From assembly GCA_018971685.1 (NCBI GenBank), contig JAGXAG010000005.1, positions 1,842 through 65,841 of the forward strand: a stretch of DNA of 64,000 nucleotides. The letters are read 5' to 3'. Origin of the DNA: Patescibacteria group bacterium (GTDB taxonomy: Bacteria; Patescibacteriota; Minisyncoccia; Phycocordibacterales; PALSA-1337). Below are positions 16,173 through 30,971 of the stretch, piece by piece. How positions within the stretch are numbered: the stretch's first letter is position 1; every line of letters starts with the position of its first letter. Position numbers and translations under genes: made by a program. The notes under the pieces were generated by a model. It was not told the DNA's origin, searched no databases, and saw nothing but the letters and a program-made list of their open reading frames with translations.

Positions 16173-18120
16173 AGATCTGCTATTTAAGATTTATGAGTCG
16201 TTGGATTATAATTCACTCATGAATCACACAACCGTCGAAGAGATAAAAGCCAAATTGACGATCGAGGATGTTATCGGATCGTATGTCAAGCTGGAAAAAG
16301 CCGGCAAATCATTCAAGGCAAGATGCCCGTTCCACAACGAGAAAACCGCCAGCTTTTTCGTCTCGCCTGAACGAGGCGGCTACTATTGTTTCGGTTGCGG
16401 CGCCAAGGGCGACATCTTCAGTTTCGTCGAACAATTCGAGGGCCTCGATTTTCGCGGGGCTTTGAAGTTATTGGCCGAAAAAGCCGGCGTCACTCTCTCA
16501 TTCGACCGCAAAGCCGACAGTGAACGCGACATGTTTTTGCAAGCCACGGAAGAGGCCGCCAAGTATTTCGAAACGCAATTCGATAAGTCAAAAGCCCCGC
16601 AAGCGTATGTCAAAAGCCGCGGAATCTCCGACGCCACCCGCAAATCATTCCGCATCGGTTGGGCTCCCGACGGCTGGCGCAACCTATCCGTTTACCTCAA
16701 AGGCAGAGGTTACAGCGACGCCATTCTCGAAAAAGTCGGTTTAATAAAGCGCAAGGATTCAAGTTCAATTATTGTAGACAAGTCCGCCGCTCTCGAAGCC
16801 GGTACTCCCTCCGCGAGCCTTACCGGCGGGATGCGACGCGGCTCGACGGGGGGAGCCGTCGGCAAAGAGAGCGGCGGGCTCGGAACCTCGAACGCTCTCA
16901 GTAATAACTACGACCGTTTTCGCGGCCGAATCATGTTTCCGATAAGCGATTCCAGCGGCCGCGTTATTGCATTTTCCGGCAGGATCCTGCATGACGACGG
17001 CAAATCGGCCAAGTACTTGAACAGTCCCGACACGCCGCTTTACGACAAATCAACCGTTCTCTACGGCCTCGACAAGGCCAAAAGCGAGATTCGACGCCTC
17101 AACTATTCCATTCTCGTCGAAGGCCAAATGGACCTCGTTATGTCCCACCAGTCCGGCATCAAAAATACTGTCGCCGCTTCCGGCACCGCCCTTTCCGACG
17201 AAACATTCAATGAAAATGGCATAATCAGCAATCTTGGCCTGGTCAGGCGACTGTCGCCAAACATCATCATAGCTTTTGATTCGGACGCTGCCGGTCGCAA
17301 AGCCGCTTTGCGCGCTTCCGGCATCGCGCTTTCGCTCGGCATGGATGTCAAAATCGCCGATATTGTCGGCGGCAAAGATCCTGCCGACCTGATCAAGGAA
17401 AATGCCGATAATTGGAAAGCGGTATTGCGCGCCGCCAAGCCGATCATCGAATTTGAATTGAATAATGTCATGCGCGAAGTCGCCGATGCGCGCAAGCTGC
17501 CCAAGGCTCTGGAGGAGCGCGTTCTGCCGTTATTGGCGAAAATCGAAAGCGGCGGCGACAGGTCGTATTTTGTGCAAATGATAGCCGTCAAAGCTAAGAT
17601 ACCGATCGACATTGTCTGGCAGGATTTGCGGATCGTCGAGGGTCGTACAAAGGCAGCTGACAGGTCCGGGCACGCAAATCTGGCCGCGGCCGTTCACACT
17701 TCCGGTGAACAGAACAAGAGGATAGATCTGATAGAAAGACGGTTATTTGGCTTGTTAAATTTGATGGAAAAGGACGGCATGTCGCAAGCCGAAGATATTA
17801 GAAAGGAAATGGAAAAATTGGCCGGCAATTCATTCGAGGCGCGGAAAGAACGCGCGAAAAAAATCATGGATGATCTGGCATTCGAGGCGGAAGCTTTCTT
17901 TGGCGGAGATAAAACAGGTTGGCAAAAGAACGCGCGGGAATTACTGTTCAATTTCGAGGAGGATATAATAAATGAAGAATTGATCCAAGCTATGCAAGAA
18001 TTAAGAGCCGTCGAAATCGCCGGCAACAGGGAACTCTTGGCCGAATTGGCGAAAAAGTGCCAAGCGCTTTCCGTCCGCAAAGCGGAGATCGGCCGTCGCA
18101 GGACGAAAATATCAAATTAA
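16162..18120 (+). CDS. dnaG: DNA primase DnaG (with Gly-rich insert)
   Basis: CPFHNEKTASFFVSPERGGYYCFGCGAKGDIFSFV zinc-ribbon and a TOPRIM region (LVEGQMDLVMSHQSG). TTG start at 16162 sits 3 nt after AGGAGG and overlaps rpoC by 11 nt. Alternative ATG at 16219. Confidence 0.88.
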   Translation: MKIKDLLFKIYESLDYNSLMNHTTVEEIKAKLTIEDVIGSYVKLEKAGKSFKARCPFHNEKTASFFVSPERGGYYCFGCGAKGDIFSFVEQFEGLDFRGALKLLAEKAGVTLSFDRKADSERDMFLQATEEAAKYFETQFDKSKAPQAYVKSRGISDATRKSFRIGWAPDGWRNLSVYLKGRGYSDAILEKVGLIKRKDSSSIIVDKSAALEAGTPSASLTGGMRRGSTGGAVGKESGGLGTSNALSNNYDRFRGRIMFPISDSSGRVIAFSGRILHDDGKSAKYLNSPDTPLYDKSTVLYGLDKAKSEIRRLNYSILVEGQMDLVMSHQSGIKNTVAASGTALSDETFNENGIISNLGLVRRLSPNIIIAFDSDAAGRKAALRASGIALSLGMDVKIADIVGGKDPADLIKENADNWKAVLRAAKPIIEFELNNVMREVADARKLPKALEERVLPLLAKIESGGDRSYFVQMIAVKAKIPIDIVWQDLRIVEGRTKAADRSGHANLAAAVHTSGEQNKRIDLIERRLFGLLNLMEKDGMSQAEDIRKEMEKLAGNSFEARKERAKKIMDDLAFEAEAFFGGDKTGWQKNARELLFNFEEDIINEELIQAMQELRAVEIAGNRELLAELAKKCQALSVRKAEIGRRRTKISN

Positions 18121-18199
18121 GTCCTTGATGTGTCTCATATCAAGAACCGGCCTGGATATTTTCACCCTTGACCGCTTGTAAATATGCTACAATATAGCT

Positions 18200-18931
18200 A
18201 TGCAGTCATACGCCATCAGACCTAGCGCGCTTATACTCGATCCGCCGACGGGCCGCGAGTACATACTCACGATCCGCGATTTGCCTGCGGAAGAAAAGCC
18301 GCGTGAAAAGCTGATTTTGCAAGGACCGGAAGCTTTGAGCATACGGGAGCTCATGGCTGTGGTTTTTACGACCGGCACTGTCAAGGAAGATGTCCTGGAA
18401 ATGGCCGATCGCGTGGTTCGAGAATATGGCGAAAGGACCATATTGGCCGAACGGGATCCGGAAAAGTTATCGCGCGAGTCAAAATTGCCGATTGTCAAAG
18501 CGTGCCAAGTCGTAGCTGTCGGCGAGCTTGGCAGGCGCTTTTACGATCGTAACCAATCCGGCTTCACAACCATACGGAATGCCAAGGAAGCGTACGAATA
18601 TCTGCATGATATGCGCAATTTATCCAAAGAGCATCTGCGGGGACTTTATCTGAACAGCCGCAACCGTGTTATCAGAGATGAAGTTATATCCATCGGTACT
18701 GTCAATTCCAACATAGTACATCCGCGCGAAGTTTTCAGGCCTGGCATAGAATACAATGCCGCCGCCGTGATCTTGGCGCACAATCATCCTTCTGGAGATG
18801 CGGCGCCCAGCGATGAAGACACAAAGATAACCGAACAGCTTATCAGAGCTGGGAAAATTCTGGGCATATCGATACTCGACCATATTATCGTCGCGAAAGA
18901 CGCCTTCGCCAGCGTTAAGGCGGACTATTAA
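18200..18931 (+). CDS. radC: RadC-like JAB/MPN domain protein
   Basis: C-terminal LAHNHPSGDAAPSDEDTKITEQL (HxHPSG...S..D JAMM motif). TACAAT at 18188-18193 is 6 nt upstream of the ATG. Confidence 0.85.
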   Translation: MQSYAIRPSALILDPPTGREYILTIRDLPAEEKPREKLILQGPEALSIRELMAVVFTTGTVKEDVLEMADRVVREYGERTILAERDPEKLSRESKLPIVKACQVVAVGELGRRFYDRNQSGFTTIRNAKEAYEYLHDMRNLSKEHLRGLYLNSRNRVIRDEVISIGTVNSNIVHPREVFRPGIEYNAAAVILAHNHPSGDAAPSDEDTKITEQLIRAGKILGISILDHIIVAKDAFASVKADY

Positions 18932-18935
18932 CAAA

Positions 18936-19277
18936 ATGATCAGGGATTACCAGGTAGTTTCTCCGTCACTTGACGGAGTTTTGACGCGTGAGACTTTGGC
19001 TTACGATGGTTTGGAAAGGCCGGATGGATTGGATCGATTGTTCGACAGATCGCCGGAATATGAACTAACCGATCTTAACGAATCATCGGATAGGCGTTGT
19101 GCCATCGAACAGTATTTCCACGACCTGTACGGCATTCTCGTCAAGAACATTTCCCAATTCGCCATCGAATCCGAGCCGACGCCGGACGAGTCGGTAAGAT
19201 TGATTGCCATGCTGCAAGAGTTTGTGAAAGTGAAAGGGTTGCTGGTTAGCGGCACGCCAAGATCCGTCCCGCAATAA
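18936..19277 (+). CDS. Hypothetical protein (113 aa, acidic)
   Basis: ORF immediately after radC; no recognisable motifs. Confidence 0.4.
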   Translation: MIRDYQVVSPSLDGVLTRETLAYDGLERPDGLDRLFDRSPEYELTDLNESSDRRCAIEQYFHDLYGILVKNISQFAIESEPTPDESVRLIAMLQEFVKVKGLLVSGTPRSVPQ

Positions 19278-19298
19278 GTGTAGTAAATAAAAAAGGTG

Positions 19299-19322
19299 TC
19301 GCATCTCGCAGGTAAGATGCGA
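19299..19322 (+). terminator. Hairpin TCGCATCT-CGCAGGTA-AGATGCGA downstream of the 18936 gene (T-run is distant)
   Basis: 8-bp perfect stem; the nearest T-run lies ~14 nt further on, so this is a weak terminator candidate. Confidence 0.3.
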
Positions 19323-19366
19323 TGCTTAGACTTTCAATTTTTCTCGCCAGAATGTAAACTGTCGTC

Positions 19367-20665
19367 ATGACAGCTAAAGATTACTTCAAGGGTAAAAGGA
19401 TAGCGCTTATCGGTTTGGGATCATACGGAGAGGAGGTCGAAGATGCCAAATTCATGATAAGGGCCGGCGCTATATTGTCGATATACGACTTGCGCAGTGA
19501 AGCCAGGCTTAAAAGCCATCTTGTCTTTTTGCGTTCTGTCGGTTTGGCCAATTATGTTTGCGGTTCTATTCCGGCCGAAGATCTTCCCGATATGGACCTG
19601 ATAATCTTGTCCAGAGAATATTCACGCAGTTCTTCTTTCTTGGAGAAAGCCACGGAAAAAGGCGTGATGATAGAATATCCGGAAACTTTGTTTTTCAAAT
19701 TGGCTCCGCCCATAACGGTGGTGGGCGTTATGGGCGCGTGCGGCAAGACGACCGTTATTTCTATGTTGGCACCGATGCTATCCGAATCTTGCGGCGGACT
19801 GTACATAAGTGACGGCGCATCCGGCGGCTTGCTGCTTTTCCTGAAGAAGATAAGGAATGGAGACATATTGATCATGAGAATTGACAGTGTGATCGCGGCT
19901 GAACTTAAGGGATTGAATATAAGCCCCCAAGTGGCGGTGCTTACGGGCGTGCCGCCAAAAGGCGTTTACAGCGATTCTCCGTTCGATGTGTTAGCCAACC
20001 AAACTTACAACAATTTCATTGTAGCTTCAGACGAAGTTATCGATGCCACGCGCGTTTACGGATTCAAGCCGCGGGCAAAGATGCTCAGGACGAAAACTTC
20101 CGTCATCCCGGAATCATGGCTGTTCAATGGTCGCACACATGACCGTGAAAATGCAGCGCTGGCCTTACAAACCGCCAAATTGTTCAAGGTGTCGGAAGAT
20201 ACGGCACAAAAAGTTCTCGAAGTATGGAAACCGCTCAAAGGCAGAGTTGAGCTAGTAAAAAAGGTAAAGATGGTCGAGTTTTACAACGACGCCGCCTCGG
20301 CGGTGCCGGAAGCGACCATGGCCGGTATTATTTCGTTGGCACAAAACCGTAATATAGTTTTGATTTTAGGCGGTGCGCACAGTGGTCATGATTACCGCGC
20401 GCTAAACGCGCTTATCCCGCAATATGCGCATACTGTGGTGCTATTGCCCGGCAGCGGGACCATCTTGGAGCGCAAGGAATTGGAGCGTTTGGACAATGTG
20501 GATGTTTTATCGGCACCATCAGTCGAAGAGGCCGTCAGGTTGGCGCAGGATCATGCGCGTTCCGGGGACCGAGTTTTGTTCAGTCCGGGCTTTGATGCCG
20601 CCGGGATCGATTCTTCGTGCAAGGAAAGAGGTGAAAGGTTCGTCAGGGCGGTTAGAGCGTTGTGA
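19367..20665 (+). CDS. murD: UDP-N-acetylmuramoylalanine--D-glutamate ligase-like Mur ligase
   Basis: VVGVMGACGKTTVISMLA P-loop in the Mur ligase central domain; about 430 aa; C-terminal Mur ligase domain. Confidence 0.7.
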   Translation: MTAKDYFKGKRIALIGLGSYGEEVEDAKFMIRAGAILSIYDLRSEARLKSHLVFLRSVGLANYVCGSIPAEDLPDMDLIILSREYSRSSSFLEKATEKGVMIEYPETLFFKLAPPITVVGVMGACGKTTVISMLAPMLSESCGGLYISDGASGGLLLFLKKIRNGDILIMRIDSVIAAELKGLNISPQVAVLTGVPPKGVYSDSPFDVLANQTYNNFIVASDEVIDATRVYGFKPRAKMLRTKTSVIPESWLFNGRTHDRENAALALQTAKLFKVSEDTAQKVLEVWKPLKGRVELVKKVKMVEFYNDAASAVPEATMAGIISLAQNRNIVLILGGAHSGHDYRALNALIPQYAHTVVLLPGSGTILERKELERLDNVDVLSAPSVEEAVRLAQDHARSGDRVLFSPGFDAAGIDSSCKERGERFVRAVRAL

Positions 20666-20675
20666 GTCGTACGGT

Positions 20676-21569
20676 TCAATCGCCGCAAATCAAGCATACG
20701 GCCGAACCGTTGACCTTGAAATTCATGCGCGCGGCTTGCATAACGCCGACAACTGACAGGGCGCCGTTACTTGAGATCTTCAAGCCAGCATGTTTCTCCA
20801 CCAATTCCCGCACAGATCTGATCTCTTCATTCGAAGCGATCCAGCCGTGGCCGCCGGTTTTCTCTATAAGCGGCACCAGTGTATTTTTACGGTAGGCAAT
20901 ATGGTCGACAACGGCGTCAGCGTCTGATTTTTCTTCCGGAATATCGAAAGGACCGAATGCGTCGGCAATCGGGTGACAAGACGAAGTCTGGACAATGTGA
21001 ACCTGTGTCGGCTGTTTATTTTCCAAGAATGATTGGGCGAGCGCTTGCGCCGTCGTACCAGAAGATGTGCCGATAAATACGGCGCCAACATTTTCGATAC
21101 CAGCCAATTCTTCGGCAAGCGTTTTGTAGCCGATGAGCGCTGTGTCATCTGTGGACTGTCTCAAGCTCCGCGAACCGTCGCCGGTCGCCTGCGCCAAAGC
21201 TTGCAGTGGCCGATCCTTCTTTTTTACTTGAATGTTATCGTCAACCAGTGCTTTCAACTTATCGAGCTTTGCGGGTGATATATTCGATCCGACAAATACG
21301 GCCAAATGCACAGGTCCGACCTGTGACACATGTCCGACATCGGCATTGAGCCGTTTTATGTGCATTGCGGCGGCCAAAGCGGCGTTGCCGGAAGAGGAGA
21401 TAGCGAATTTACGATCCCCGCGTTCGAGATAGTAGCTGATCATTACGGGAATGGAACGTCCCTTATGCGAACCGTAAGGGTGCAAATCCTCGCGTTTGAA
21501 GTATAGATCGGACGCGTTGATCGCTTTCGCCAACTCAGGGTAATGTCCGGTAGGGGTTATGGTATTCAC
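20676..21569 (-). CDS. PLP-dependent fold-type-II enzyme, ACC deaminase/D-cysteine desulfhydrase-like
   Basis: YFKREDLHPYGSHKGRSIPVMISYYLERGDRKFAISSSGNAALAAA resembles the KREDL...GGNKxRKLE...SxGGxQSN pattern of that family. Confidence 0.6.
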   Translation of the reverse strand: MNTITPTGHYPELAKAINASDLYFKREDLHPYGSHKGRSIPVMISYYLERGDRKFAISSSGNAALAAAMHIKRLNADVGHVSQVGPVHLAVFVGSNISPAKLDKLKALVDDNIQVKKKDRPLQALAQATGDGSRSLRQSTDDTALIGYKTLAEELAGIENVGAVFIGTSSGTTAQALAQSFLENKQPTQVHIVQTSSCHPIADAFGPFDIPEEKSDADAVVDHIAYRKNTLVPLIEKTGGHGWIASNEEIRSVRELVEKHAGLKISSNGALSVVGVMQAARMNFKVNGSAVCLICGD

Positions 21570-21639
21570 ATTGTCATATTACTATTTTTCCGTTAGTATT
21601 GAAAGCGCGTTACCAAGGTTGGACCTTGGAAATAAAACA

Positions 21640-21834
21640 ATGATTCAACAAAATATCAAAGACGAAAATTCGTTGCTCGTTTGTCCGGAATGCAAGAATG
21701 CAGTCGATCTCTCCCGTTATCCCAACCTCGCGCCCGGCATGGTGGTTGAATGCAACCACTGCGGCATGACGCTTTTGGTCAAGGAGATTATGAGTAAAGA
21801 GATCAAGGCCGATATAGTTGACGAGGGGAAATAG
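21640..21834 (+). CDS. LysW-like zinc-ribbon small protein (64 aa)
   Basis: MIQQNIKDENSLLVCPECKNAVDLSRYPNLAPGMVVECNHCGMTLLVKEI follows the CPECx...L...GxxVxCxxCGxxLxV arrangement of LysW carrier proteins, but the C-terminus ends ...VDEGK rather than in Glu. Overlaps convergently with the end of the Mpl-like gene. Confidence 0.4.
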   Translation: MIQQNIKDENSLLVCPECKNAVDLSRYPNLAPGMVVECNHCGMTLLVKEIMSKEIKADIVDEGK

Positions 21835-23248
21835 TCTCTTCAATCATTCCCCTGAATCCGTGAGAACCCAGAAAGACGATGATATCGCCATCGACGGTTT
21901 GTGATTTCAAGAAAGAAACAACTTCTTCATCGTCTTCAAAATAATGAACAGAATGATGCGTCTTGCCAATGATCTCTGCCAATTCGGCGCCTTCGAGAGA
22001 CGTATTTGATTTTTCAGATCCATCCTCGACAGTCTTTAGTTTGGTCAATCTCGGAATAACCACAATATCCGCGTCTTTGAAAGCGCGGTCGTATTTCAGG
22101 GTCGATTTCCGACTGCGTCCGCCGATGTTCGGCTCGAAAACCGCGATGATTTTTCCGGAATAAATTTCCCTAAGGTTCCTCAATACCGAAGCCGCCTTTT
22201 CCGGAGAATGGGCGATATCGTCGAACACGGTAACGCCTTTTCCGTCAGAGCTGTCATTCGAAGGATCGCCGATCATCCTTTTCTCAAGCCTCCTTTTAAG
22301 CCCCTTGAATCGGGCAACCGCTTTGATTATTGTTTCGGGGTTTATGCCGATGCTATGTGCCATGGCGAAACAGCCGGTGATATTCTCCGCTTGGAACGCG
22401 CCGATCATTGGCGAATGTATGTCGAACGAATCATGTCCATGTTTTATGGTAAAATAGATGCCATTTTCTGATTGCCTGACATTTTCATAAGAATATTCAA
22501 CGCCACTCTTGCCGTATGAAATAGCCTTGCCGCGATAATCGCCCAAAACCTTGCTTACTCCCGGTGCGTTTGTGTTTGCGACGATAAACCCGGTTTTTGG
22601 CATGGAAACAATCAGCCGTCCAAAGGCCTTGAAGTAACTCTCCTCCGTAGGATACAGGTCGGCATGATCCCAAGAAACAGCCGTCAATAATAGGTGAGTC
22701 GGCTTGTAGTAGAAAAATTTCGCGGTCGGATCGGTCGGCGAGCTCTTGTATTCATCGCCCTCGAAAACACCCCAATCGCCGCCGGCCAATTTTGCCGATT
22801 GATGGGAAAGGGAAATGCCGCCGAACATATAGCTAGGATCATAGCCGGCTTGGTCAATGATGAACGACAAAAGCGCCGCCGAAGAAGTCTTGCCCCAGGT
22901 GCCGGCGCAAACGATATTGTTTTTGCGGGTGAAAAATTCACCTATGGCTCCGGCGAAAGAATAAATCGGGATGCCGTGTTCTTTGGCGTAAACAGTTTCC
23001 GGATTGCGGCTGCCGGAAGCCGTGCCGACGATGATCGCTTCCGGTACGCCGCCGGCGACCATTTTGTCCGGATGCCAACCGGCGTAATATTCGACGCCGG
23101 TTTCAGCAAGATATGTGGATACCGGCGGATAGAAACCTTTGTCGGAGCCGGTCACTTTGACGCCCACTTTGTGCAAGGCAACAGCTAAAGCGCTTGTTGC
23201 TACGCCGCATATGCCTATTACATGGATCCGTTTCGGCAGTTCCATCAT
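21803..23248 (-). CDS. Mur ligase of the MurC/Mpl subfamily (UDP-MurNAc:tripeptide ligase-like)
   Basis: N-terminus RIHVIGICGVATSALAVALHKVGVKVTGSD...YPPVSTYL and AGTWGKTSSAALLSFII closely parallel Mpl/MurC (HILGICGT...VTGSD...YPPMST; AGTHGKTTT). Confidence 0.8.
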   Translation of the reverse strand: MMELPKRIHVIGICGVATSALAVALHKVGVKVTGSDKGFYPPVSTYLAETGVEYYAGWHPDKMVAGGVPEAIIVGTASGSRNPETVYAKEHGIPIYSFAGAIGEFFTRKNNIVCAGTWGKTSSAALLSFIIDQAGYDPSYMFGGISLSHQSAKLAGGDWGVFEGDEYKSSPTDPTAKFFYYKPTHLLLTAVSWDHADLYPTEESYFKAFGRLIVSMPKTGFIVANTNAPGVSKVLGDYRGKAISYGKSGVEYSYENVRQSENGIYFTIKHGHDSFDIHSPMIGAFQAENITGCFAMAHSIGINPETIIKAVARFKGLKRRLEKRMIGDPSNDSSDGKGVTVFDDIAHSPEKAASVLRNLREIYSGKIIAVFEPNIGGRSRKSTLKYDRAFKDADIVVIPRLTKLKTVEDGSEKSNTSLEGAELAEIIGKTHHSVHYFEDDEEVVSFLKSQTVDGDIIVFLGSHGFRGMIEETISPRQLYRP

Positions 23249-23949
23249 GGCTGGTTAATGTTATTAGACGCTAGTATTCTTTTCACTTCCTCGATATCAC
23301 CCGACCATTTTTTGCCGTCGAACCATTCAATACCATGGAATTGGAGTTTGTAGGTGTCGCTTGGCCGTTGAAGTGAACCCATGTAGAAAAAATTTTTGCC
23401 AACATCCTTGGCGTGTTGGATCGCCATGATCATCATGCCGAGCCCGATGTCTTTGGGCGAAGCGTTAAGATCATAGAACGGATAAGAATAATGCATGAAT
23501 GAAGCTACGGAATAGACAATCGCGTATCCGACATGCTGCGGTACGACCTCGGTGCTCTGAAGTCGTACCGCAGTAGAATAAGTCAATAATCGGTTGAAAT
23601 TGCTTTTTGTTTCATCCGTAATCATCTCTTTGATTTTTTGTGCACTCATTATTCCGGGCCCGAATTTTGTGTCGTAAAAATCTTTTGCCATTTTCGCAAT
23701 CTTCCAATCGTATTTTTCCGGCGGCATGGGCAAACTGACTTTTTTCGGTTTTATGTCGCCGACCTTTTTCAGTATTCTGCGATTTTCGCTTGTCAATTCG
23801 AATTTCGACAGATCTATTCTGGCGCTTCGGGTCTGATCCATGATCCCTTTGCCGAGGCGAGTGAAAAGGTAACCGCGGCTGTACATTCCGGCGACATTTG
23901 GTTCCGAAAAATCGGTTATTATTTTTTCATCCCATTTTAAATACGGCAT
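23245..23949 (-). CDS. Bpt/ATE-like aminoacyl-tRNA--protein transferase family protein (GNAT fold)
   Basis: FELTSENRRILKKV matches the ATE_C ...SxxxRRVLKxN motif. HYSYPFYDLNASPKDIGLGMMIMAIQHAKDVGKNFFYMGSLQRPSDTYKLQFHGIEWFDGKKW matches the YxYYDP...G...YLGY...MxYK..F.P.E...G.W block. Confidence 0.5.
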   Translation of the reverse strand: MPYLKWDEKIITDFSEPNVAGMYSRGYLFTRLGKGIMDQTRSARIDLSKFELTSENRRILKKVGDIKPKKVSLPMPPEKYDWKIAKMAKDFYDTKFGPGIMSAQKIKEMITDETKSNFNRLLTYSTAVRLQSTEVVPQHVGYAIVYSVASFMHYSYPFYDLNASPKDIGLGMMIMAIQHAKDVGKNFFYMGSLQRPSDTYKLQFHGIEWFDGKKWSGDIEEVKRILASNNINQP

Positions 23950-23953
23950 GAGA

Positions 23954-25081
23954 TCAATGCAACGCCAGCCAGAATCCGAATACGACGAAAATAAAATGAA
24001 TCACCCAGAACCTCATGACTGTTTTCTCCTCGCTCCATCCTTTGAGCTCGAAATGGTGATGCAGCGGTGCCATCGCAAACACTTTTTTGCCGAAAAGATA
24101 TTTCGAGATCACTTGGATGATTACTGACAACGCTTCGACATAGAACATAAAACCCAAGAAAGGCAAAGAGCCGATCTCTCCGATTGCCATCGCATTCACG
24201 GCCAGAAGTGCGCCCAAGCCCAATGAACCGACATCGCCCATCATGAATCGCGCCGGTTTGATATTGAAATAAGTGTAAGCCGACAGTGCGCCGACGGCCG
24301 TGGCGTTCAGGATCGCGATCTCACCGAAGCCGTTGATCCACGAGATCAACGAGAGTGCACTGAAAGTGATGATGAGCATGCCGCCGGTCATGCCGTCCAT
24401 GCCGTCGGTGATGTTGACCGCATTGGCGGTGAACATGACGATGAATATCACTATGGGTACGATCAGCCAGCCGGCGTTCCAGTCAAAACCGAAAGGAAAA
24501 TAGACGAAATGCCAAGCCGGGCCGAGCTTTGCGTATATCCAATACGCGGCGATGGCGCCGGCCGCGAATTGTAATAAAAGTTTCTCGTGAACGAAGACGC
24601 CGCGGCGGGTGCGCGAGCCGAACCAGACAGACAGGCGCTTGAAAGCGGTCCATGGCAAAGAAATGAGGTACCAAAGACGCATGCGCCATTCTTTATGGAC
24701 TTTGATCAGATTCCAGACATGGCCGATCTTGCGCGAGCGGCGCTCGGTGCCGTAAATATTCAAAAGGTCGTCGATGGCGCCCAACAGGGCGGCGATTATC
24801 ATTATTCCCACCGGCACCCAGGTGAAGCTCCGGGACCAATTCAAGGCGTAAGTGACGACGGCGATGGTGACTATGACGAGCAATCCGCCCATGACCGGGG
24901 TGGATGTTTTGTAGGCGTGGGAACCGACGGCGGCGAGTTCGGTTTTGGCGCCTTTGACGACCTTGAAATGGTAAAGGATGCGAGTCAGAAATGGCGCCCA
25001 CGCGAATGCGACAACGGCGCTGATCAGCATGAAACTGATGATGTAAGCGAGATCGGCGGTGCCCTGCAAAATCGTTAACAT
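23954..25081 (-). CDS. mraY: Phospho-N-acetylmuramoyl-pentapeptide transferase (GT4 MraY/WecA family)
   Basis: About 10 TM helices; NAVNITDGMDGMTGG (NxxNxxDGxDGL signature); PLHHHFEL near the C-terminus. Confidence 0.85.
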   Translation of the reverse strand: MLTILQGTADLAYIISFMLISAVVAFAWAPFLTRILYHFKVVKGAKTELAAVGSHAYKTSTPVMGGLLVIVTIAVVTYALNWSRSFTWVPVGIMIIAALLGAIDDLLNIYGTERRSRKIGHVWNLIKVHKEWRMRLWYLISLPWTAFKRLSVWFGSRTRRGVFVHEKLLLQFAAGAIAAYWIYAKLGPAWHFVYFPFGFDWNAGWLIVPIVIFIVMFTANAVNITDGMDGMTGGMLIITFSALSLISWINGFGEIAILNATAVGALSAYTYFNIKPARFMMGDVGSLGLGALLAVNAMAIGEIGSLPFLGFMFYVEALSVIIQVISKYLFGKKVFAMAPLHHHFELKGWSEEKTVMRFWVIHFIFVVFGFWLALH

Positions 25082-25162
25082 GACGGCATATTACCATATT
25101 TTTCAGGCCTTGAATATGGACGCGAACGCCCCGCTCCCGAAATTATCTCGTGAGCGGGGCGT

Positions 25163-25933
25163 TCAGAACCAATTGAGGCGCCGGATTTCGGTCTTTGAAT
25201 TTCGGGCGCGTTCGAAGATACGGAGATTGTCGCCGAGCCACTTTTGTTCAACGAGCGATTTTTCCGTATCAGTGATTTCGATGGCGCCTTGCCTGACGCC
25301 GGTGCCGTATAGGCCATCTTCAGGATAGGCGACGGCGTGAGTGTAATAAAGTTTGGTCGGTGTGAAATTTTGGTAGTCGGCTTGGTGAATTATCAACACA
25401 TGATCCCTGTCATCGCCGCGCGCGGTTACTGATTTTCCGATCATGGTGATGATGTCTCCCGGCCGGATTTCTTTGATGCTGATCGTACCGCTGTTTCTAT
25501 TGTTTGCCAATGTGGCAATATCGCAGTTTTCGGCGGGACGCATGGAGCAGCGGATCTTGCCGACAATGCCTTTACAATTTACAAAATGAAGATGTTTGTC
25601 GATGACGCCTTTGCCGCGGTCTCCGTTCTCGGCGTTCAGTACATAATACGCGAATCCGGAACAGTCAATGCCGATATTTTCGTCAACCAACAACATCTTC
25701 AAGGACTGGTCGGCCAAAGAATCTGCGGTTATGTGATTTTTCGTTGCGACGGCTTGGATTTCCTCGAATATGTCTTTGGGACTGCCCTTGCCGACTCTGG
25801 CTCTGAGCGCGGCTCTCATCCGCGCGGTTTTATTGTTGAAATACGGGACCGAGCAAACGGCGTTGCCAAATTTGAAGTGTATATATTGATCGATCACTGA
25901 CAGCGCGCGATTTGAAACAGTTTTGGTGTTCAT
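25163..25933 (-). CDS. Cytoplasmic NlpC/P60 (C40) family cysteine peptidase-like protein
   Basis: IGIDCSGFAYYVL (catalytic Cys motif), then RPGDIITM...DHVLIIHQ (pGDLxff...HVgIy motif). No signal peptide or TM segment. Confidence 0.55.
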   Translation of the reverse strand: MNTKTVSNRALSVIDQYIHFKFGNAVCSVPYFNNKTARMRAALRARVGKGSPKDIFEEIQAVATKNHITADSLADQSLKMLLVDENIGIDCSGFAYYVLNAENGDRGKGVIDKHLHFVNCKGIVGKIRCSMRPAENCDIATLANNRNSGTISIKEIRPGDIITMIGKSVTARGDDRDHVLIIHQADYQNFTPTKLYYTHAVAYPEDGLYGTGVRQGAIEITDTEKSLVEQKWLGDNLRIFERARNSKTEIRRLNWF

Positions 25934-27126
25934 GGCCGTTGTTTGATAATTTCCGCGATCTCTTTCCCGCTTTTATTCAGTTTGCCGTGGCTCTCTACGA
26001 AACTGTGAATGCTTCGGATCCTCAACAGATCGGAATTTATCTTAACATTTGAATAAACGGTTGTCTTATATCCGGCGGATTCCATGGCAGAGATGGCGTT
26101 GGCGGGAACTTCGACGGTATCCTTGGTGACGCGCTGGATGATCTGTCCGCCATCGGAGATTTTAATCAGCGGCTGATCTATAGGCTGTTCGAGCAGAGCG
26201 AGCAGATGGGCTTCGAATATACTGAGGTCGGACTTCGATGTTGAGCTCAGGTCGGACCTCGGTAAACTTTGCAACTGCGATTCGAAAGTGGCCGAAGCCG
26301 GCTGGCGGGCATTGATCTCTATAAGGAAAATACGGCCGGATTGTTCGTCTTTGATGGCATCGACGCCGAAAAGGCCGCGCCAACCATCGGCGCGCATCCG
26401 TTCGCCGATCTCACGCGCAATGGTTTCAATCTGCGCGATTTCATTGTCGGCCAAGATCGTATGCGCGGCGCCCCAATCATTGCCGACGGTGCTGAACGGA
26501 TTGTCGGTAAACGGCGCCATGCCGGTTATTTGGTAACTGACATTGCCAACCATGATTTTGTTTTTCGCCGCGACGACATTTGCCGTGAATGACGGGCCGG
26601 CCACAAATGTCATCGCGCGCGCGGGGCGTTCCGTGAATTTTTCTTGAACCGCGCGCAATTCCTCGGCGGATCCTATTGAGACAGTGCCGTCGCCGGTATG
26701 TCCGTGCGCCCATTGAACGACCATTTTGGAGGATTTACACATGTCCGACATGTGCAGATCTTTGGTTGGAGCGATCTTATGCGCCGGCAAATACTTCAAG
26801 GCCAAGTCGCCAAGCCATTCAACTTGAGTTATTTTGTTCTCGATCTTCTCGGCGAGCGCTGCGGACGGATTCAATAATTCCCAACCGTTCTTGTTGCATA
26901 TATCTTCTATTTGCGAATTATTTTTGAACACCAGCACCGCCGCACCGCTGTTGCCGATAATTTTACGCGTCGAGTCAAGTTGTAACAATTCGGCGGTTGA
27001 GAGCGGCCTCGAATCGCGTCGCGAACTGTCGTTTGAGATTATTTTATAATCATCGCTTTCCGGCACGCCCTGCGCGCGTTCCGCATCCCGCGTTACATAA
27101 ACGATTTTCTTTTTGAACGGCTGCAT
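25930..27126 (-). CDS. ATP-grasp family ligase of unknown specificity
   Basis: WRGLFGVDAIKDEQSGRIFLIEINARQPAS is a typical ATP-grasp C-terminal Mg/ATP motif; ~400 aa. Confidence 0.55.
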   Translation of the reverse strand: MQPFKKKIVYVTRDAERAQGVPESDDYKIISNDSSRRDSRPLSTAELLQLDSTRKIIGNSGAAVLVFKNNSQIEDICNKNGWELLNPSAALAEKIENKITQVEWLGDLALKYLPAHKIAPTKDLHMSDMCKSSKMVVQWAHGHTGDGTVSIGSAEELRAVQEKFTERPARAMTFVAGPSFTANVVAAKNKIMVGNVSYQITGMAPFTDNPFSTVGNDWGAAHTILADNEIAQIETIAREIGERMRADGWRGLFGVDAIKDEQSGRIFLIEINARQPASATFESQLQSLPRSDLSSTSKSDLSIFEAHLLALLEQPIDQPLIKISDGGQIIQRVTKDTVEVPANAISAMESAGYKTTVYSNVKINSDLLRIRSIHSFVESHGKLNKSGKEIAEIIKQRP

Positions 27127-27224
27127 GCTGAAAGTTTAGTACAGTTTTAATTTGGAAACAATCTGCCAAAACGATGACTTTCTTGTCGTTTGAAGATCGA
27201 AGCCTCTCGTGTTAATTTGAATTA

Positions 27225-28028
27225 ATGGCATCATTATCCGTCGTCGGCACGCCGATAGGCAATATGGGCGACATTTCATTGAGGGCGCTCGAAACGCTGA
27301 AAAACGCCGACCTTATTTTGTGCGAAGATACCAGGGTGACGCGCAAATTATTGGACAAGTATGAAATAAAAACGGCGACGCTTTCATACCATTCGCACAG
27401 TAAAATATCGAGAATCGAAGAAATAATCGGGCGGTTGAAAGAAGGCAAAAATATCGCATTAGTCTCGGACGCCGGCACGCCGGGGATTTCCGATCCGGGC
27501 GCAGAATTGGTCGGGCGTGTCAGGCAAGAATTGAAAAGCGAGATCTGTTCCGGAGAATTGAAAATCGTTTCGGTGCCCGGTCCGTCGGCTCTGATTGCCG
27601 CGCTTTCGATCGCCGGAATCAGGTGCGACCAAAGTGCCGGCGGTTTCGTCTTCCTCGGATTTTTGCCGCACAAAAAGGGCAGGGAAACGCTTTTTCGGGA
27701 GATGGCGGTTTCAAAGCGCACCACGATATTTTACGAATCGCCGCACAGGATTATAAAGACGCTGGAGTCGTTACAAAAATCCAACGCTTCATTTCCCGAA
27801 GCAGCCTGTCTTAAAAAAGCGGATTCCGCACGGTCCACATCGTCAACTTCTTTAAAAAAGGCAGTACCCGAACAGAGGAAAATTCTCGACAAGCGGATAA
27901 CTGTTTGCCGCGAGCTTACGAAAATCTTCGAAGAAGTCACAAGCGGCACCGCCGAGGAAGTCAAGGAGTTTTTCGAGAAAAATCCCGATAAGATCAGGGG
28001 GGAATTCGTGGTGATTGTTTCCAAATGA
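27225..28028 (+). CDS. rsmI: 16S rRNA (cytidine1402-2'-O)-methyltransferase RsmI, with C-terminal region insert
   Basis: SLSVVGTPIGNMGDISLRALETLKNADLILCEDTRVTRKLL and LVSDAGTPGISDPG are tetrapyrrole-methylase-fold RsmI signatures. Confidence 0.85.
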   Translation: MASLSVVGTPIGNMGDISLRALETLKNADLILCEDTRVTRKLLDKYEIKTATLSYHSHSKISRIEEIIGRLKEGKNIALVSDAGTPGISDPGAELVGRVRQELKSEICSGELKIVSVPGPSALIAALSIAGIRCDQSAGGFVFLGFLPHKKGRETLFREMAVSKRTTIFYESPHRIIKTLESLQKSNASFPEAACLKKADSARSTSSTSLKKAVPEQRKILDKRITVCRELTKIFEEVTSGTAEEVKEFFEKNPDKIRGEFVVIVSK

Positions 28029-28031
28029 AAA

Positions 28032-28067
28032 CCTCCGCCACGACCTCTCGGGGTTTAGTGGCGGAGG
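28032..28067. terminator. Bidirectional hairpin terminator between convergent rsmI and the 28055-28414 gene (CCTCCGCCAC/GTGGCGGAGG)
   Basis: 10-bp perfect stem, preceded by AAAA, overlapping the stop codon of the minus-strand gene. Confidence 0.45.
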
Positions 28068-28414
28068 ATGATGAGTCCTTCTCTCACAAGCGACATAACA
28101 ACCGAAGTGTCTTCGTGCATGCAAGAGAGGATTATCAGGTCTCCTTCCATTGACCTGACCTTGATGCGTTGAACGGAATTCTTTTCCACCGAGCAATCGA
28201 ATTTGAATTCGTAATCCGTAAACATTTTCCCGTTCCCGTCGCAATGCCATTCTGCTGGCACGCTGCCATTTTTTCGTATCCGTACCATCAAGTCGAACAC
28301 TAATGACAGGTGCCGCCCGACAAATTCGACGCTTTTGATCAGTCCGGCGTAATGATCGCCAGATACCGCGTGGATCCAGCCAACTTTGTATGTTTCGGTA
28401 GCCATAGTAGCCAC
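28055..28414 (-). CDS. Hypothetical protein (119 aa)
   Basis: Strong SD GGAAAGGAGGTGGC (reverse complement of 28420-28433) upstream of the ATG; no family recognised. Confidence 0.5.
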   Translation of the reverse strand: MATMATETYKVGWIHAVSGDHYAGLIKSVEFVGRHLSLVFDLMVRIRKNGSVPAEWHCDGNGKMFTDYEFKFDCSVEKNSVQRIKVRSMEGDLIILSCMHEDTSVVMSLVREGLIILRH

Positions 28415-28550
28415 CTCCTTTCCGGCACCATAATATCATTTTGTGCCATATTCGCAAGGACTGCATACATTAGATTTAGTACACAGCATATATTCCGGCA
28501 CATACATAAAAATGTTGCCATATGCCATCACTTGCCGTTATAATAGCGAT

Positions 28551-28829
28551 ATGTCGAAAAGGCAATGGCTGATAATATTCGGAGTCATCGTAGTCGCTTT
28601 GCCTTTTTTGGGATTTCCGTTGAATTGGAACGCGGCGTTCTCGGTCGCGTTAGGATTGCTGATAATAATCGTAGCGTATAGGATAGCGCCAACAACTGAG
28701 GCAATGGCAACAAACAGTGAAGACTTGCCTTACGCGGAACATCATTCAGATATTGCGACAAAGACAATACCGAAACAAGCGAATATTCCGGAAGAGAGCA
28801 TTACCAGCGACAGTCAATCAAATCAGTAA
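28551..28829 (+). CDS. Small membrane protein (2 TM helices)
   Basis: MSKRQWLIIFGVIVVALPFLGFPLNWNAAFSVALGLLIIIVAY... TATAAT at 28539-28544 is 6 nt upstream of the ATG. Stop TAA abuts the ATG of the next gene. Confidence 0.4.
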   Translation: MSKRQWLIIFGVIVVALPFLGFPLNWNAAFSVALGLLIIIVAYRIAPTTEAMATNSEDLPYAEHHSDIATKTIPKQANIPEESITSDSQSNQ

Positions 28830-30257
28830 ATGAGCATACCGTGGCGCAAGTTTGGAGCGACCAAAATCGCCACACTGGTGATAGGAACGCTCGTTATTTT
28901 GCTTATAGGACTGTGGATAACATGGGGATTTCCTGTGGGCACCATTGATTACGCTACACAGCCTATCGCTTCCAATACCGATAATGACCCGAGCGCGGCA
29001 AGTACGGGTATTGCCTCATCAACCGAAAATGATTTGCCGTCCAAACCGATCGTGACTCATTTGCCGACACCCGATCCGCTCAAGGCTGTGTACATAACCG
29101 CTTGCACTGCCAGCGAAAGGCGTTTGCGCGACAAAGTAGTATCACTTTTCAGCGGTTCGGAATTGAATGCCATTATTATAGATATAAAGGATTACACGGG
29201 CACTCTGGCTTATTCGTCGTCCACATTACGCACTGGCCGGACCGGAAACGGCTGTGTGATCATTGACCTGCCGGAGTTTTTACATAAGCTTCATGAAAAA
29301 GGAATTTATACGATAGCACGCGTTACCGTTTTTCAGGATCCGCTATACGCCGAAGAGCATCCTGAATCTGCTATTAAAAAAGTTTCAAATCCCCAAGCAT
29401 TGTGGCGCGATCCGAAAGGTTTGGCCTATATAGATCCGGGCGCGGTTCCATTCTGGGACTATATAGTGAATATTTCCAAAGAGGCGTACTCGATAGGTTT
29501 CGATGAAATCAATTATGATTACATACGCTTCCCGTCGGACGGCGATTTGAAAGATATGAAGTTGCTGCCCGAGGATAATCGTCCGGTTCATGTGAGTGTG
29601 GCCGCCTCGATCTCAACTCCGACAAGCGCTTCGACCTCGGGTTCGTTTTTAGGTGCGGCAACTACCACATCGGCTGGCCAAAAGATAAATACCGGGCAGC
29701 GTATATTGTCGTATGAAACTTCAAAGTCGAGAATCATTACCGAATTCTTCAAATATTTGAAAGAACATATGGCGGACACGCCGGTGAAATTGTCAGCGGA
29801 TTTATTCGGCCTGACGACAAGCGCCGAGAGCGACTTGGGCATAGGCCAAATTCTGGAAAACGCCTTGCCTTATTTCGACTATGTTTGTCCGATGGTGTAT
29901 CCGTCGCACTTCGCTTACGGCTTCATCGGCATACCGCGCCCGGCGACGAAGCCGTACGAGGTGATCAGTTATTCCATGAGCCACGCGATCATGAAGGTTG
30001 ACGCGGCGTCTTCCACGCCGTCGAAATTGCGCCCATGGCTGCAGGCTTTCGATCTGGGGGCGGTTTATACGCCGGCTATGGTGGAGGCCGAGAAGCAAGC
30101 GGTCTACGATTCGGGACTTTCGAGCTGGTCTCTCTGGAATGCGGGGAGTATTTACACTTCCGCGGAATTGGCGCCGGCGACAAAGATGGTTACATACAAG
30201 AACGCTTCGACTTCCGCTGAAATCTCGGCTTCAACCGCCACTACTACAGTTAGATAA
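28830..30257 (+). CDS. Membrane-anchored putative glycoside-hydrolase-like protein (DUF4015/GHL-type TIM-barrel)
   Basis: N-terminal TM helix; KAVYITACTASERRLRDKVVSLFSGSELNAIIIDIKDYTG resembles the family's conserved start; Ser/Thr-rich C-terminal tail. Confidence 0.45.
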   Translation: MSIPWRKFGATKIATLVIGTLVILLIGLWITWGFPVGTIDYATQPIASNTDNDPSAASTGIASSTENDLPSKPIVTHLPTPDPLKAVYITACTASERRLRDKVVSLFSGSELNAIIIDIKDYTGTLAYSSSTLRTGRTGNGCVIIDLPEFLHKLHEKGIYTIARVTVFQDPLYAEEHPESAIKKVSNPQALWRDPKGLAYIDPGAVPFWDYIVNISKEAYSIGFDEINYDYIRFPSDGDLKDMKLLPEDNRPVHVSVAASISTPTSASTSGSFLGAATTTSAGQKINTGQRILSYETSKSRIITEFFKYLKEHMADTPVKLSADLFGLTTSAESDLGIGQILENALPYFDYVCPMVYPSHFAYGFIGIPRPATKPYEVISYSMSHAIMKVDAASSTPSKLRPWLQAFDLGAVYTPAMVEAEKQAVYDSGLSSWSLWNAGSIYTSAELAPATKMVTYKNASTSAEISASTATTTVR

Positions 30258-30883: not shown

Positions 30884-30971
30884 TCTCTGAAACAGTTTTT
30901 TACCCGGCGTACTATATGGAGCAGTGCGCCGGCTTTTTGTATTCGACTTTTCCGTTCCGTGGTACAATACT

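Follow-up and report, generated by a model that had tools for sequence, protein, structure and literature searches.

A conserved Patescibacteria gene block with an Mpl-lineage ligase: a possible variant of peptidoglycan precursor synthesis

Introduction

How do Patescibacteria carry out the first steps of stem-peptide synthesis, and do the genes found next to their mraY make cell-wall precursors anew or salvage them? The questions are raised by a block of genes in a 64,000-nt stretch of contig JAGXAG010000005.1 from a Patescibacteria group bacterium; this whole stretch is termed the window here, and coordinates are positions within it. The block encodes an ATP-grasp ligase, a putative NlpC/P60-superfamily hydrolase (P60-like protein), MraY, a transferase that resembles Bpt and ATE1 (Bpt-like protein), a 481-aa ligase predicted to act on UDP-N-acetylmuramic acid (UDP-MurNAc), a small LysW-like zinc-ribbon protein and a pyridoxal phosphate (PLP) enzyme. 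A sequence-only reading of this DNA had proposed a muropeptide salvage pathway. The interpretation favoured here, tentatively and with slightly less than an even chance of being right, is that these are cell-wall precursor genes of the Patescibacteria (candidate phyla radiation, CPR) that serve de novo synthesis with non-canonical early stem-peptide steps, not salvage.

Synthesis of peptidoglycan precursors by MurA to MurF, Ddl and MraY is regarded as close to universal and ranks as a major target of antibiotics. To our knowledge, a MurC-type step is required in any organism that makes peptidoglycan. No description of this gene cluster was found in the literature searched.

The 481-aa ligase

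The ligase has three Mur ligase domains (Pfam), an architecture it has in common with Mpl of Escherichia coli (b4233) and of Psychrobacter arcticus (PDB 3hn7). Its NCBIfam scores are 243 bits on the murC model (TIGR01082, cut-off 335.1) and 194 bits on the mpl model (TIGR01081, cut-off 388.7), and six orthologues score 188–232 bits on the mpl model, all under the cut-off. A MurC identity was first taken from these numbers, 243 being larger than 194. E. coli Mpl, however, scores 914 on the mpl model and 273 on the murC model, and E. coli MurC 610 on the murC model and 182 on the mpl model. Because a genuine Mpl (273) outscores the ligase (243) on the murC model, the hidden Markov model (HMM) scores do not discriminate between the two families in this case. 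The MurC assignment was dropped on the strength of this calibration together with BLAST, shared indels, a phylogenetic tree and the nearest relatives in a large protein library.

With BLASTP, the ligase matches E. coli Mpl with 173 bits versus 99 bits for E. coli MurC. In a plasmid collection, which includes many mislabelled chromosomes, annotated Mpl sequences score 161–207 bits and annotated MurC sequences from Proteobacteria, Firmicutes and Chlamydiae 122–147 bits; two unannotated actinobacterial sequences of MurC type have 146 and 100 bits, the latter from Kitasatospora. A distance-based neighbour-joining tree (457 columns, 300 bootstraps, four Mpl and six MurC references, MurD as outgroup) joins the CPR ligases with Mpl at 91% bootstrap and with MurC at 1%. 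The same affinity is seen in a library of 1.84 billion proteins: among the best 150 cluster representatives, 132 of the 135 full-length proteins are nearer to Mpl than to MurC, and nearly all of the full-length ones have the long loop of the Mpl type.

Four signatures are common to the ligase and Mpl: a GICG loop, GSDxx(Y/F)PPxST with one additional residue, a seven-residue insertion after DEY, and a C-terminal GGFxG, also with one additional residue. None of the four occurs in the MurD outgroup or in six MurC sequences drawn from four phyla. In the N-terminal and central domains, the features reported as specific to Mpl are a GI(C/G)GTFM loop, Tyr182 and a (S/T)AFFDKRSK loop that is lacking in other Mur ligases (Das et al., 2011; PMC3060825), and the seven-residue insertion corresponds to the last of these. 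Members of the ligase family display GICGVAT, DEY with the Tyr after DE, and a loop of a length identical to that of Mpl with the pattern xxxxDxxxKF; the sequence inside the loop is partly conserved.

By these sequence comparisons the ligase is not a canonical MurC but a member of the Mpl lineage, in a clade sister to murein peptide ligase. This is a family-level assignment. The sequence-only reading had likewise called it Mpl-type and not MurC, and at that level BLAST, the shared indels, the bootstrap value and the nearest relatives in the large library all bear it out. MurC belongs to the same superfamily, and the same UDP-MurNAc substrate is expected for the ligase. Perhaps the ligase is the sole MurC/Mpl-family enzyme of these genomes.

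The genomic setting differs from that of Mpl. The ligase gene and its relatives are found in clusters of the division and cell wall (dcw) type with de novo genes, and not beside recycling genes. The best-scoring genuine mpl, that of Candidatus Magnetococcus massalia (L085, 1–1807), lies directly after ampD on a 40-kb plasmid, a recycling context unlike that in CPR.

Conservation of the gene block

A scan with one genome per species found 192 relatives of the Bpt-like protein, and 80 loci were examined; names among these include Paceibacteria, Taylorbacteria, Magasanikbacteria and Minisyncoccia. In loci of sufficient length, the order is RsmI (opposite strand), ATP-grasp, P60-like, MraY, Bpt-like, ligase, LysW-like (opposite), PLP enzyme, followed by the MurD-like protein, a 113-aa protein (hyp113) and RadC (opposite). 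Both order and strands are kept in approximately 80 Patescibacteria species, with median intergenic gaps of 10–55 bp, and the same block is present on an 825-kb contig. Synteny of this depth indicates that the arrangement is not due to chance and that the members are functionally linked.

Several loci carry insertions or interruptions. Reverse-transcriptase open reading frames (ORFs), probably of group II introns, are found between cluster genes in L009 (4416–5111), L016 (2326–2976) and L047 (3090–4148) with gene order undisturbed; the L009 member has a Pfam RVT_1 match. Other, unrelated insertions encode a NUDIX protein, a 23S rRNA-intervening-sequence protein and proteins that have no family match. 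In L008, a 293-aa ORF after the ligase gene (10111–10989) has a weak C-terminal match to EPSP_synthase (MurA family) and may be a MurA remnant. Single in-frame stops occur in some metagenome-assembled genomes, in the genes for ATP-grasp (L018, L046, L066, L067, L076), the ligase (L029, L050, L051, L062), the P60-like protein (L008) and the MurD-like protein (L055); they may reflect assembly errors, pseudogenes or recoding.

The murD gene normally sits between mraY and ftsW. Distant relatives of the ligase, with 32–39% identity, are found in dcw clusters where that interval has a different content. Locus L096 has the order mraZ-rsmH-ftsL-ftsI-MurE-Bpt-like-ligase-murA-mraY-LysW-like-PLP-ATP-grasp-ftsW-murG-x-ftsA-ftsZ, and L099 (Candidatus Shapirobacteria) has the same order plus MurF between murA and mraY. 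Thus LysW-like, PLP and ATP-grasp genes fill the interval from mraY to ftsW in both. Queries with E. coli proteins readily recover MurE (E 1e-38 to 3e-45) in the two clusters and MurF (E 2e-27) in L099; no MurC, MurD or Ddl was seen within either. In a further locus, L097, the ligase, LysW-like, PLP, ATP-grasp and P60-like genes are contiguous. Two sub-modules emerge from the gene orders, one consisting of the Bpt-like protein and the Mpl-type ligase and the other of the LysW-like, PLP, ATP-grasp and P60-like proteins, both tied to mur/dcw genes.

With E. coli queries, no MurE, MurF, Ddl, MurG or FtsW was found in the window or within 8 kb on each side in the 80 loci. Among the annotated genes of the window or related loci there is no AmpG/Opp-type importer, AmpD, LdcA, NagZ or dipeptide epimerase. 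The genes of the block and of its distant counterparts sit with MurA, MurB, MurE, MurF, MurG and FtsW, and no import or recycling genes were seen; therefore de novo synthesis is favoured over salvage. Retention of the block in about 80 of the species sampled, and its recurrence in further CPR classes, fit a core pathway better than an optional one.

MraY and the Bpt-like transferase

MraY scores 176 bits on the NCBIfam model mraY (TIGR00445), slightly under the cut-off of 192, versus 34 bits for WecA. It also matches Pfam Glycos_transf_4 with 86 bits, is 37% identical to E. coli MraY over 214 aa and has seven predicted transmembrane-like segments. Orthologues are 55–83% identical, mostly approximately 75%. 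It should be pointed out that MraY, the ligase and the MurD-like protein all fall below their NCBIfam cut-offs.

The Bpt-like protein, which is identical to NCBI KGQ27_02750, matches the NCBIfam arginyltransferase model (PRK01305) with E 5.6e-11 over residues 41–216, below equivalog cut-offs. Its Pfam ATE_C score is 20.2 bits against a gathering cut-off of 25, and many homologues carry PF04377. There are more than 1300 homologues; those listed are 200–255 aa long and 56–66% identical. The family profile yielded noise only against PDB sequences, and a fold search settled the assignment. The predicted model has a predicted local distance difference test score (pLDDT) of 89.8, and with Foldseek all 20 of the 20 best PDB matches are aminoacyl-tRNA transferases, with a probability of 1.00. 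They include aminoacyl-phosphatidylglycerol synthases/MprF, ATE1 (TMq 0.66), FemX and L/F-transferase. The protein is thus predicted to have the tandem GNAT-like fold of aminoacyl-tRNA transferases.

The predicted fold is that of FemX/FemABX, MurM and Bpt/ATE1/L,F-transferase, and sequence homology extends across the Bpt/ATE core. The protein differs from the FemX family in having no Pfam FemAB (PF02388) match and no coiled-coil insertion. It differs from Bpt/ATE in that no match to the Cys-rich ATE_N domain (Pfam) and no conserved Cys in the aligned N-terminal region were found. Its conserved place, between MraY or MurE and the ligase, sets it apart from both groups. The gene has that of the Mpl-type ligase as its neighbour, in the window family as well as in two distant lineages (L096, L099). 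As with Weissella FemX, the substrate of the Bpt-like protein could be a cytoplasmic nucleotide precursor, modified before MraY acts.

The LysW-like protein and the PLP enzyme

All 33 aligned members of the LysW-like family match Pfam Zn_ribbon_LysW (PF21344) at E<=0.01, with 5.8e-10 as the best value, and the window protein itself, at 25.4 bits, is just under the gathering score of 27. The family profile has weak matches to solved LysW chains (5k2m_E, 3wwl_A). A homologue search with this profile returned members of the same family only, 1660 in number; each of 120 listed has CxxC..CxxC and a C-terminal Gly-Lys, and 119 of the 120 have VDEGK. Identity in related loci is 52–80%. In the distant lineages L096, L097 and L099 the tails are of the type ..IIEEEK or ..IVEEGK, i.e. 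Lys after acidic residues is kept. Known LysW proteins have a C-terminal ..EDWGE tail, the last Glu of which carries the substrate. No LysZ/Y/J/K genes were seen in the Pfam annotation of the neighbours of the LysW-like gene.

The LysW-like gene is divergent from the PLP (PALP) gene in 65 of 65 loci, and in two loci both genes are flipped together. The PLP enzyme matches Pfam PALP with 115 bits, and threonine synthase is its best NCBIfam match (49.6 bits). Against the PDB, the profile matches ThrC with 54, 49 and 44 bits, then Asp racemase 5ybw with 38 bits over the full length, and Ser dehydratase/racemase. The PLP-lysine motif GSHKGRS and an SSSGN loop are conserved. The PLP gene overlaps the ATP-grasp gene by 8 bp in L096 and L099 and by 4 bp in L097.

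Current database names of the accessory proteins are 'hypothetical', 'ATP-grasp domain-containing', 'arginyl-tRNA-protein transferase' and 'RNA polymerase subunit RPC12'.

The ATP-grasp ligase and the P60-like hydrolase

The ATP-grasp protein matches Pfam ATP-grasp_3 above the cut-off. No useful PDB sequence match was obtained with the single sequence or with a profile. In structural type it is nearest to PurK, L-amino-acid ligases and PylC. Ddl was not among its closest structural neighbours, and no Dala_Dala_lig match was found with Pfam or NCBIfam.

The P60-like protein of the window scores 16.8 bits on NLPC_P60 (PF00877), where the gathering score is 23. Of 36 orthologues, 12 match NLPC_P60 at E<=0.01 (best E 5.5e-5), and single members match Amidase_6, CHAP and DUF1287. 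Across 36 sequences, C91 (in G-I-D-C-S-G) and H178 are invariant and H199 nearly so, and the Cys motif aligns to that of LytE. The protein has a conserved N-terminal extension and a long insertion, 87 residues lying between catalytic Cys and His. It is probably cytoplasmic, as neither a hydrophobic N-terminus nor a signal peptide is predicted. Both in the window family and at the distant locus L097, the P60-like gene comes after that for the ATP-grasp protein. The conserved residues point to an NlpC/P60-superfamily member with its catalytic Cys/His retained.

Thus most of the protein families named in the sequence-only reading are recovered. The presence of MraY, an ATP-grasp ligase and a PLP enzyme is supported by Pfam and NCBIfam matches and by synteny, and that of a Bpt-like aminoacyl-tRNA transferase by the predicted fold and the arginyltransferase match. 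That reading had made the P60-like and Bpt-like assignments dependent on HMM thresholds; both proteins fall below the gathering cut-offs, and both assignments were rescued by family-wide scans, conserved catalytic residues or predicted structure. As for its cytoplasmic NlpC/P60 enzyme of the YkfC type, a cytoplasmic protein of the NlpC/P60 superfamily is supported, but no SH3b or YkfC-type domain match (Pfam) was found in the protein or its orthologues. The PLP enzyme had been placed in the D-Cys-desulfhydrase/1-aminocyclopropane-1-carboxylate (ACC) deaminase family, and this was abandoned, since the matches are to threonine synthase and Asp/Ser racemases and neither ACC deaminase nor D-Cys desulfhydrase is among the NCBIfam or PDB matches listed.

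The neighbouring MurD-like protein

A gene for a MurD-like protein adjoins the block. The protein matches NCBIfam murD (TIGR01087) in two stretches with 132 bits, the cut-off being 212. Pfam MurD-like_N and Mur_ligase_C are matched and the P-loop is kept; no Mur_ligase_M domain is present in the window protein by Pfam or in precomputed annotation. When aligned with E. coli MurD, the window protein has substitutions or deletions at the positions labelled E157, H183, carbamylated K198, K319/T321 (SKATN) and K348, where residue labels are approximately 1 position off. The same positions are lost in 14 of the 14 orthologues shown. The central domain is thus degenerate, and the protein may be a pseudo-enzyme or have a changed function, perhaps being inactive as a ligase. 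Because these central-domain catalytic residues are lost, the gene is weak evidence for canonical MurC-to-MurD steps.

The hyp113 gene, between those for RadC and the MurD-like protein, has no family match; it is found at the same position in 47 related loci with 31–54% identity.

Layout of the locus

Coordinates are collected in Table 1. The six minus-strand ORFs of the sequence-only reading are all present at the positions and in the order it gave. It had taken 4-bp overlaps as the sign of a single operon that included the PLP gene. Such overlaps are found at two junctions, ATP-grasp/P60-like and Bpt-like/ligase; the MraY/Bpt-like junction is a 4-bp gap and P60-like/MraY an 81-bp gap. The ligase is translationally coupled to the Bpt-like transferase and to MraY. 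The 233-bp interval from the ligase gene to the PLP gene is filled by the plus-strand LysW-like gene, which had been missed; it is convergent with the ligase gene, with a 32-bp overlap, and divergent from the PLP gene. Since this opposite-strand gene intervenes and the LysW-like/PLP pair inverts as a unit, the PLP gene is considered its own transcription unit, outside the operon that runs from ATP-grasp to ligase. A scan of 18000–29000 with Rfam gave no RNA family match.

Table 1. Features of the window, with position and strand
Feature	Position	Strand	Remark
ATP-grasp carboxylate-amine ligase, 398 aa	25930-27126	-	first gene of the minus-strand operon
NlpC/P60-superfamily Cys/His hydrolase (P60-like), putative, 256 aa	25163-25933	-	
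MraY, phospho-MurNAc-pentapeptide translocase (makes lipid I), 375 aa	23954-25081	-	
Bpt/ATE-like aminoacyl-tRNA-dependent transferase, predicted, 234 aa	23245-23949	-	
Mpl-type UDP-MurNAc ligase, 481 aa	21803-23248	-	
LysW-like zinc-ribbon protein, 64 aa	21640-21834	+	
Fold-type-II PLP enzyme, 297 aa	20676-21569	-	
MurD-like protein, 432 aa	19367-20665	+	convergent with the PLP gene
113-aa protein (hyp113)	18936-19277	+	
RsmI-like protein (TP_methylase)	27225-28028	+	upstream of the ATP-grasp gene; position kept in 53/81 loci
DUF4015 putative glycosyl hydrolase	28830-30257	+	upstream of the ATP-grasp gene; position kept in 44/81 loci
716-aa protein with TrwB/TraG-type coupling-protein domains	30924-33074	+	adjoins the glycosyltransferase cluster
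Surface-polysaccharide locus	33071-56132		
MurB	56958-58160		after the polysaccharide locus

The window DNA is present in both Logan and NCBI assemblies. The genes around the block in the window include those for Rpb1/RpoC, DnaG, RadC, the RsmI-like protein, many glycosyltransferases, MurB, SecA and Obg; GatB and a giant protein are encoded beyond the window end. RsmH, a methyltransferase related to the RsmI-like protein, opens the dcw cluster in L096 and L099. The 716-aa protein has a long low-complexity C-terminus, and the same TrwB/TraG-type neighbour is found on the 825-kb contig (L093). The surface-polysaccharide locus encodes approximately 10 glycosyltransferases, epimerases, methyltransferases, a polysaccharide deacetylase, a Wzt/ABC-2 exporter pair and an 804-aa O-antigen-ligase-like protein with TPR repeats.

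A proposed mechanism

If the block serves de novo synthesis, the accessory module would supply and activate an amino acid or a short peptide that contains a D-residue. The PLP enzyme would be a racemase or epimerase, the ATP-grasp enzyme would form an amide (or isopeptide) bond, and the NlpC/P60 enzyme would hydrolyse or edit the isopeptide, with the LysW-like tail as a carrier or docking element. The Bpt-like enzyme would transfer a single residue from an aminoacyl-tRNA onto a free amino group, either of the module intermediate or of the nucleotide precursor. The Mpl-type ligase would join the amino acid or peptide to the UDP-MurNAc made by MurA and MurB, and in this way cover the MurC step and possibly the MurD step. 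MurE and MurF would then complete the stem, and MraY would make lipid I.

A more specific form of this proposal, decidedly doubtful and drawn purely from analogy with the enzyme families concerned, is a carrier-protein route in which L-Ala-D-Glu is built off the nucleotide, replacing MurC, MurD and glutamate racemase. An ATP-grasp enzyme of the PylC/L-amino-acid-ligase type would tether L-Glu to the LysW-like protein, linking the gamma-carboxyl to the epsilon-amine of the conserved C-terminal Lys. The fold-type-II PLP enzyme would epimerise the tethered Glu with its free alpha-amine, and the Bpt/ATE-like transferase would add L-Ala from Ala-tRNA. Members of the Bpt/ATE family aminoacylate N-terminal Asp/Glu of proteins. 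The cytoplasmic NlpC/P60 enzyme would cut the gamma-D-Glu-Lys isopeptide and free the dipeptide, which the Mpl-type ligase would attach to UDP-MurNAc, ready for MurE. Each step would be typical chemistry of its enzyme family. The route would account for the Lys-ending tail, the Mpl ancestry of the ligase, the presence of the module in the murD slot and the degenerate MurD-like protein.

Several observations weigh against de novo synthesis by altered early steps. The C-domain residues FAHH, EPRSNT and SNG have been proposed to bind the tripeptide in Mpl, and the ligase does not have these peptide-binding residues: in place of EPRSNTM it has EPN(I/T)G(G/N)R, which is shorter by one residue, and in place of FAHH it has IAHS. 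Of the five residues that bind L-Ala in Haemophilus influenzae MurC (Tyr346, His348, His376, Arg377, Arg380), two are kept, His348 and Arg380, and the positions aligned with Tyr346, His376 and Arg377 have Ile, Asn and Ile/Thr; the C-domain loop is of MurC length. The substrate domain thus matches neither Mpl nor MurC, and the ligase may simply add L-Ala.

Other points of this kind concern the partners of the ligase. The tail of the LysW-like protein ends in Lys and not in Glu as in LysW, and the ATP-grasp protein is structurally nearer to PurK and L-amino-acid ligases than to LysX. Neither of the Microgenomatia-type dcw clusters, L096 and L099, contains a P60-like gene. In other lineages the order is MurE-DUF1611-ligase (L101, 7720–10085; L102, 8904–11392), with DUF1611 in place of the Bpt-like gene, which suggests alternative partner modules for one ligase. 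Scans of the locus for promoters and terminators showed no excess over shuffled expectation. Canonical MurC, MurD, Ddl, Alr or MurI may lie elsewhere in the genome, in which case the accessory genes could be those of mere tailoring enzymes. Moreover, the peptidoglycan pathways of CPR have been described as 'essentially complete' (PMC7143001), which may or may not reflect automatic annotation of this ligase as MurC.

Alternative explanations

The last points lead to the conservative explanation, judged somewhat unlikely, that the Mpl-type ligase is the MurC of the phylum and adds L-Ala, while canonical MurD, MurE and MurF act from other loci and the accessory genes have tailoring roles. The PLP and ATP-grasp enzymes would be non-orthologous replacements of the racemase and the D-Ala-D-Ala ligase, or would form a D-amino-acid side-chain ligase system like that of Aslfm. 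The Bpt-like protein would be a Fem analogue that adds a cross-bridge residue to UDP-MurNAc-pentapeptide, the P60-like protein would edit wrong products, and the LysW-like protein would be an accessory subunit.

Several points agree with tailoring. A place beside mur genes is the usual one for ddl, and E. coli DdlB weakly matches the ATP-grasp protein of L078 (27% over 174 aa, E 3e-5). The short overlaps of 4–8 bp between PLP and ATP-grasp genes in L096, L097 and L099 are as for a supplier and its ligase, and the PLP profile matches Asp racemase over its full length. The Bpt-like fold equals that of FemX/MprF/ATE, and in L101, where the Bpt-like gene is absent, the mur neighbourhood includes a canonical FemAB gene upstream of MurA. 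The MurC-length loop of the ligase with the retained Arg380 and His348 equivalents fits addition of L-Ala, and the report of essentially complete CPR pathways also fits. But tailoring gives no role to the conserved Lys-ending LysW-like tail or to the P60-like hydrolase. It also leaves without explanation the Mpl lineage of the ligase, the place of the module, which fills the murD slot of dcw clusters that lack MurC, MurD and Ddl but are otherwise complete, and the loss of catalytic residues in the Paceibacterial MurD-like protein.

Salvage, the proposal of the sequence-only reading, is very unlikely. Imported host muropeptides would be trimmed by a YkfC-like NlpC/P60 enzyme and religated to UDP-MurNAc by the Mpl-type ligase, the ATP-grasp ligase, tRNA-dependent transferase and PLP enzyme would remodel the fragments, and MraY would make lipid I from the product. 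The Mpl lineage of the ligase is in accord with this, as are the cytoplasmic P60-like protein with its intact Cys/His pair, the reduced genome of the Patescibacterium, and the fact that in related lineages no MurC or MurD is seen in the dcw cluster; the substrates of Mpl enzymes include di-, tri-, tetra- and pentapeptides (PMC3060825). However, the importer, AmpD, LdcA and NagZ were not seen among the annotated genes of the window or related loci, and the block is embedded among de novo genes, namely MurA, MurB, MurE, MurF, MurG and FtsW. The ligase has lost the residues thought to bind the tripeptide in Mpl, and the P60-like protein has no SH3b or YkfC-type match. In addition, salvage needs no ATP-grasp ligase, PLP enzyme, carrier-like protein or tRNA-dependent transferase, and conservation in about 80 species with recurrence in other CPR classes fits a core pathway. 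The salvage proposal was therefore set aside.

Finally, it is highly improbable that the accessory genes have functions unrelated to the synthesis of peptidoglycan peptides, e.g. that the Bpt-like protein is an N-degron transferase and the LysW-like/PLP/ATP-grasp/P60-like set serves a small pathway for an amino acid or a cofactor, with the mur linkage as inherited gene order. In favour of this, protein N-termini are the normal targets of Bpt/ATE enzymes, lysine or arginine is the product of LysW systems, the housekeeping genes for RsmI, RadC and DnaG are syntenic too, and unrelated genes and group II introns are inserted between members in some loci. Against it, the linkage outlasts big rearrangements across CPR classes and is always beside mur/dcw genes (e.g. 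L096, L099, L097), 4-bp overlaps couple the Bpt-like gene to the ligase gene, and the LysX/Z/Y/J/K-type enzymes by which LysW pathways are defined are absent from the Pfam annotation of neighbours.

Comparison with known systems

The block has single features of each of several known systems, but fails the defining features of each. The likeness to LysW/LysX of Thermus, Sulfolobus and Thermococcus consists of a small zinc ribbon with a flexible acidic tail and of adjoining genes for an ATP-grasp enzyme, a modifying enzyme and a hydrolase. The ATP-grasp protein is not LysX-like, however, and the tail has a different terminal residue.

For the D-aspartate ligase Aslfm and its racemase in Enterococcus faecium, and for PylC, no specific sequence match was obtained. 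The racemase-like enzyme of the block differs from that system in having the PALP fold, and the LysW-like and P60-like partners are without counterpart there. With the YkfA-C and AmpD-LdcA-Mpl recycling pathways, the block has in common a cytoplasmic NlpC/P60 enzyme and a ligase of the Mpl lineage. In contrast to recycling, genes for a transporter, amidase, L,D-carboxypeptidase or dipeptide epimerase were seen neither in the window region nor in related loci. The P60-like protein differs from YkfC in that it has no SH3b and carries the 87-residue Cys-His insertion.

The MurD2/MurL route of Xanthomonas, where D-Glu is made after ligation and not by a racemase acting on the free amino acid (PMC8788868), is a precedent for the lineage-specific replacement of an early stem-peptide step. 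The proteins and the taxa differ from those considered here, and MurD2 is an intact MurD paralogue.

Significance

The findings suggest that the first stem-peptide steps proceed differently in the Patescibacteria, a very large radiation most of which is uncultured. The difference consists of an Mpl-lineage ligase where MurC is expected, plus five conserved accessory proteins, unusual among which in this setting are a tRNA-dependent transferase of the Bpt/ATE type and a LysW-like protein with a Lys-ending tail. All proteins of the block are small and, except for MraY, predicted to be soluble.

The block is thus viewed as a variant of peptidoglycan precursor synthesis, and there is a real chance that it represents a new biochemical route. 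If this is true, a textbook pathway would have a route not previously described, and the origin of Mpl would be clarified. It would also correct automatic annotation as 'MurC' and 'MurD', through which CPR pathways appear canonical.

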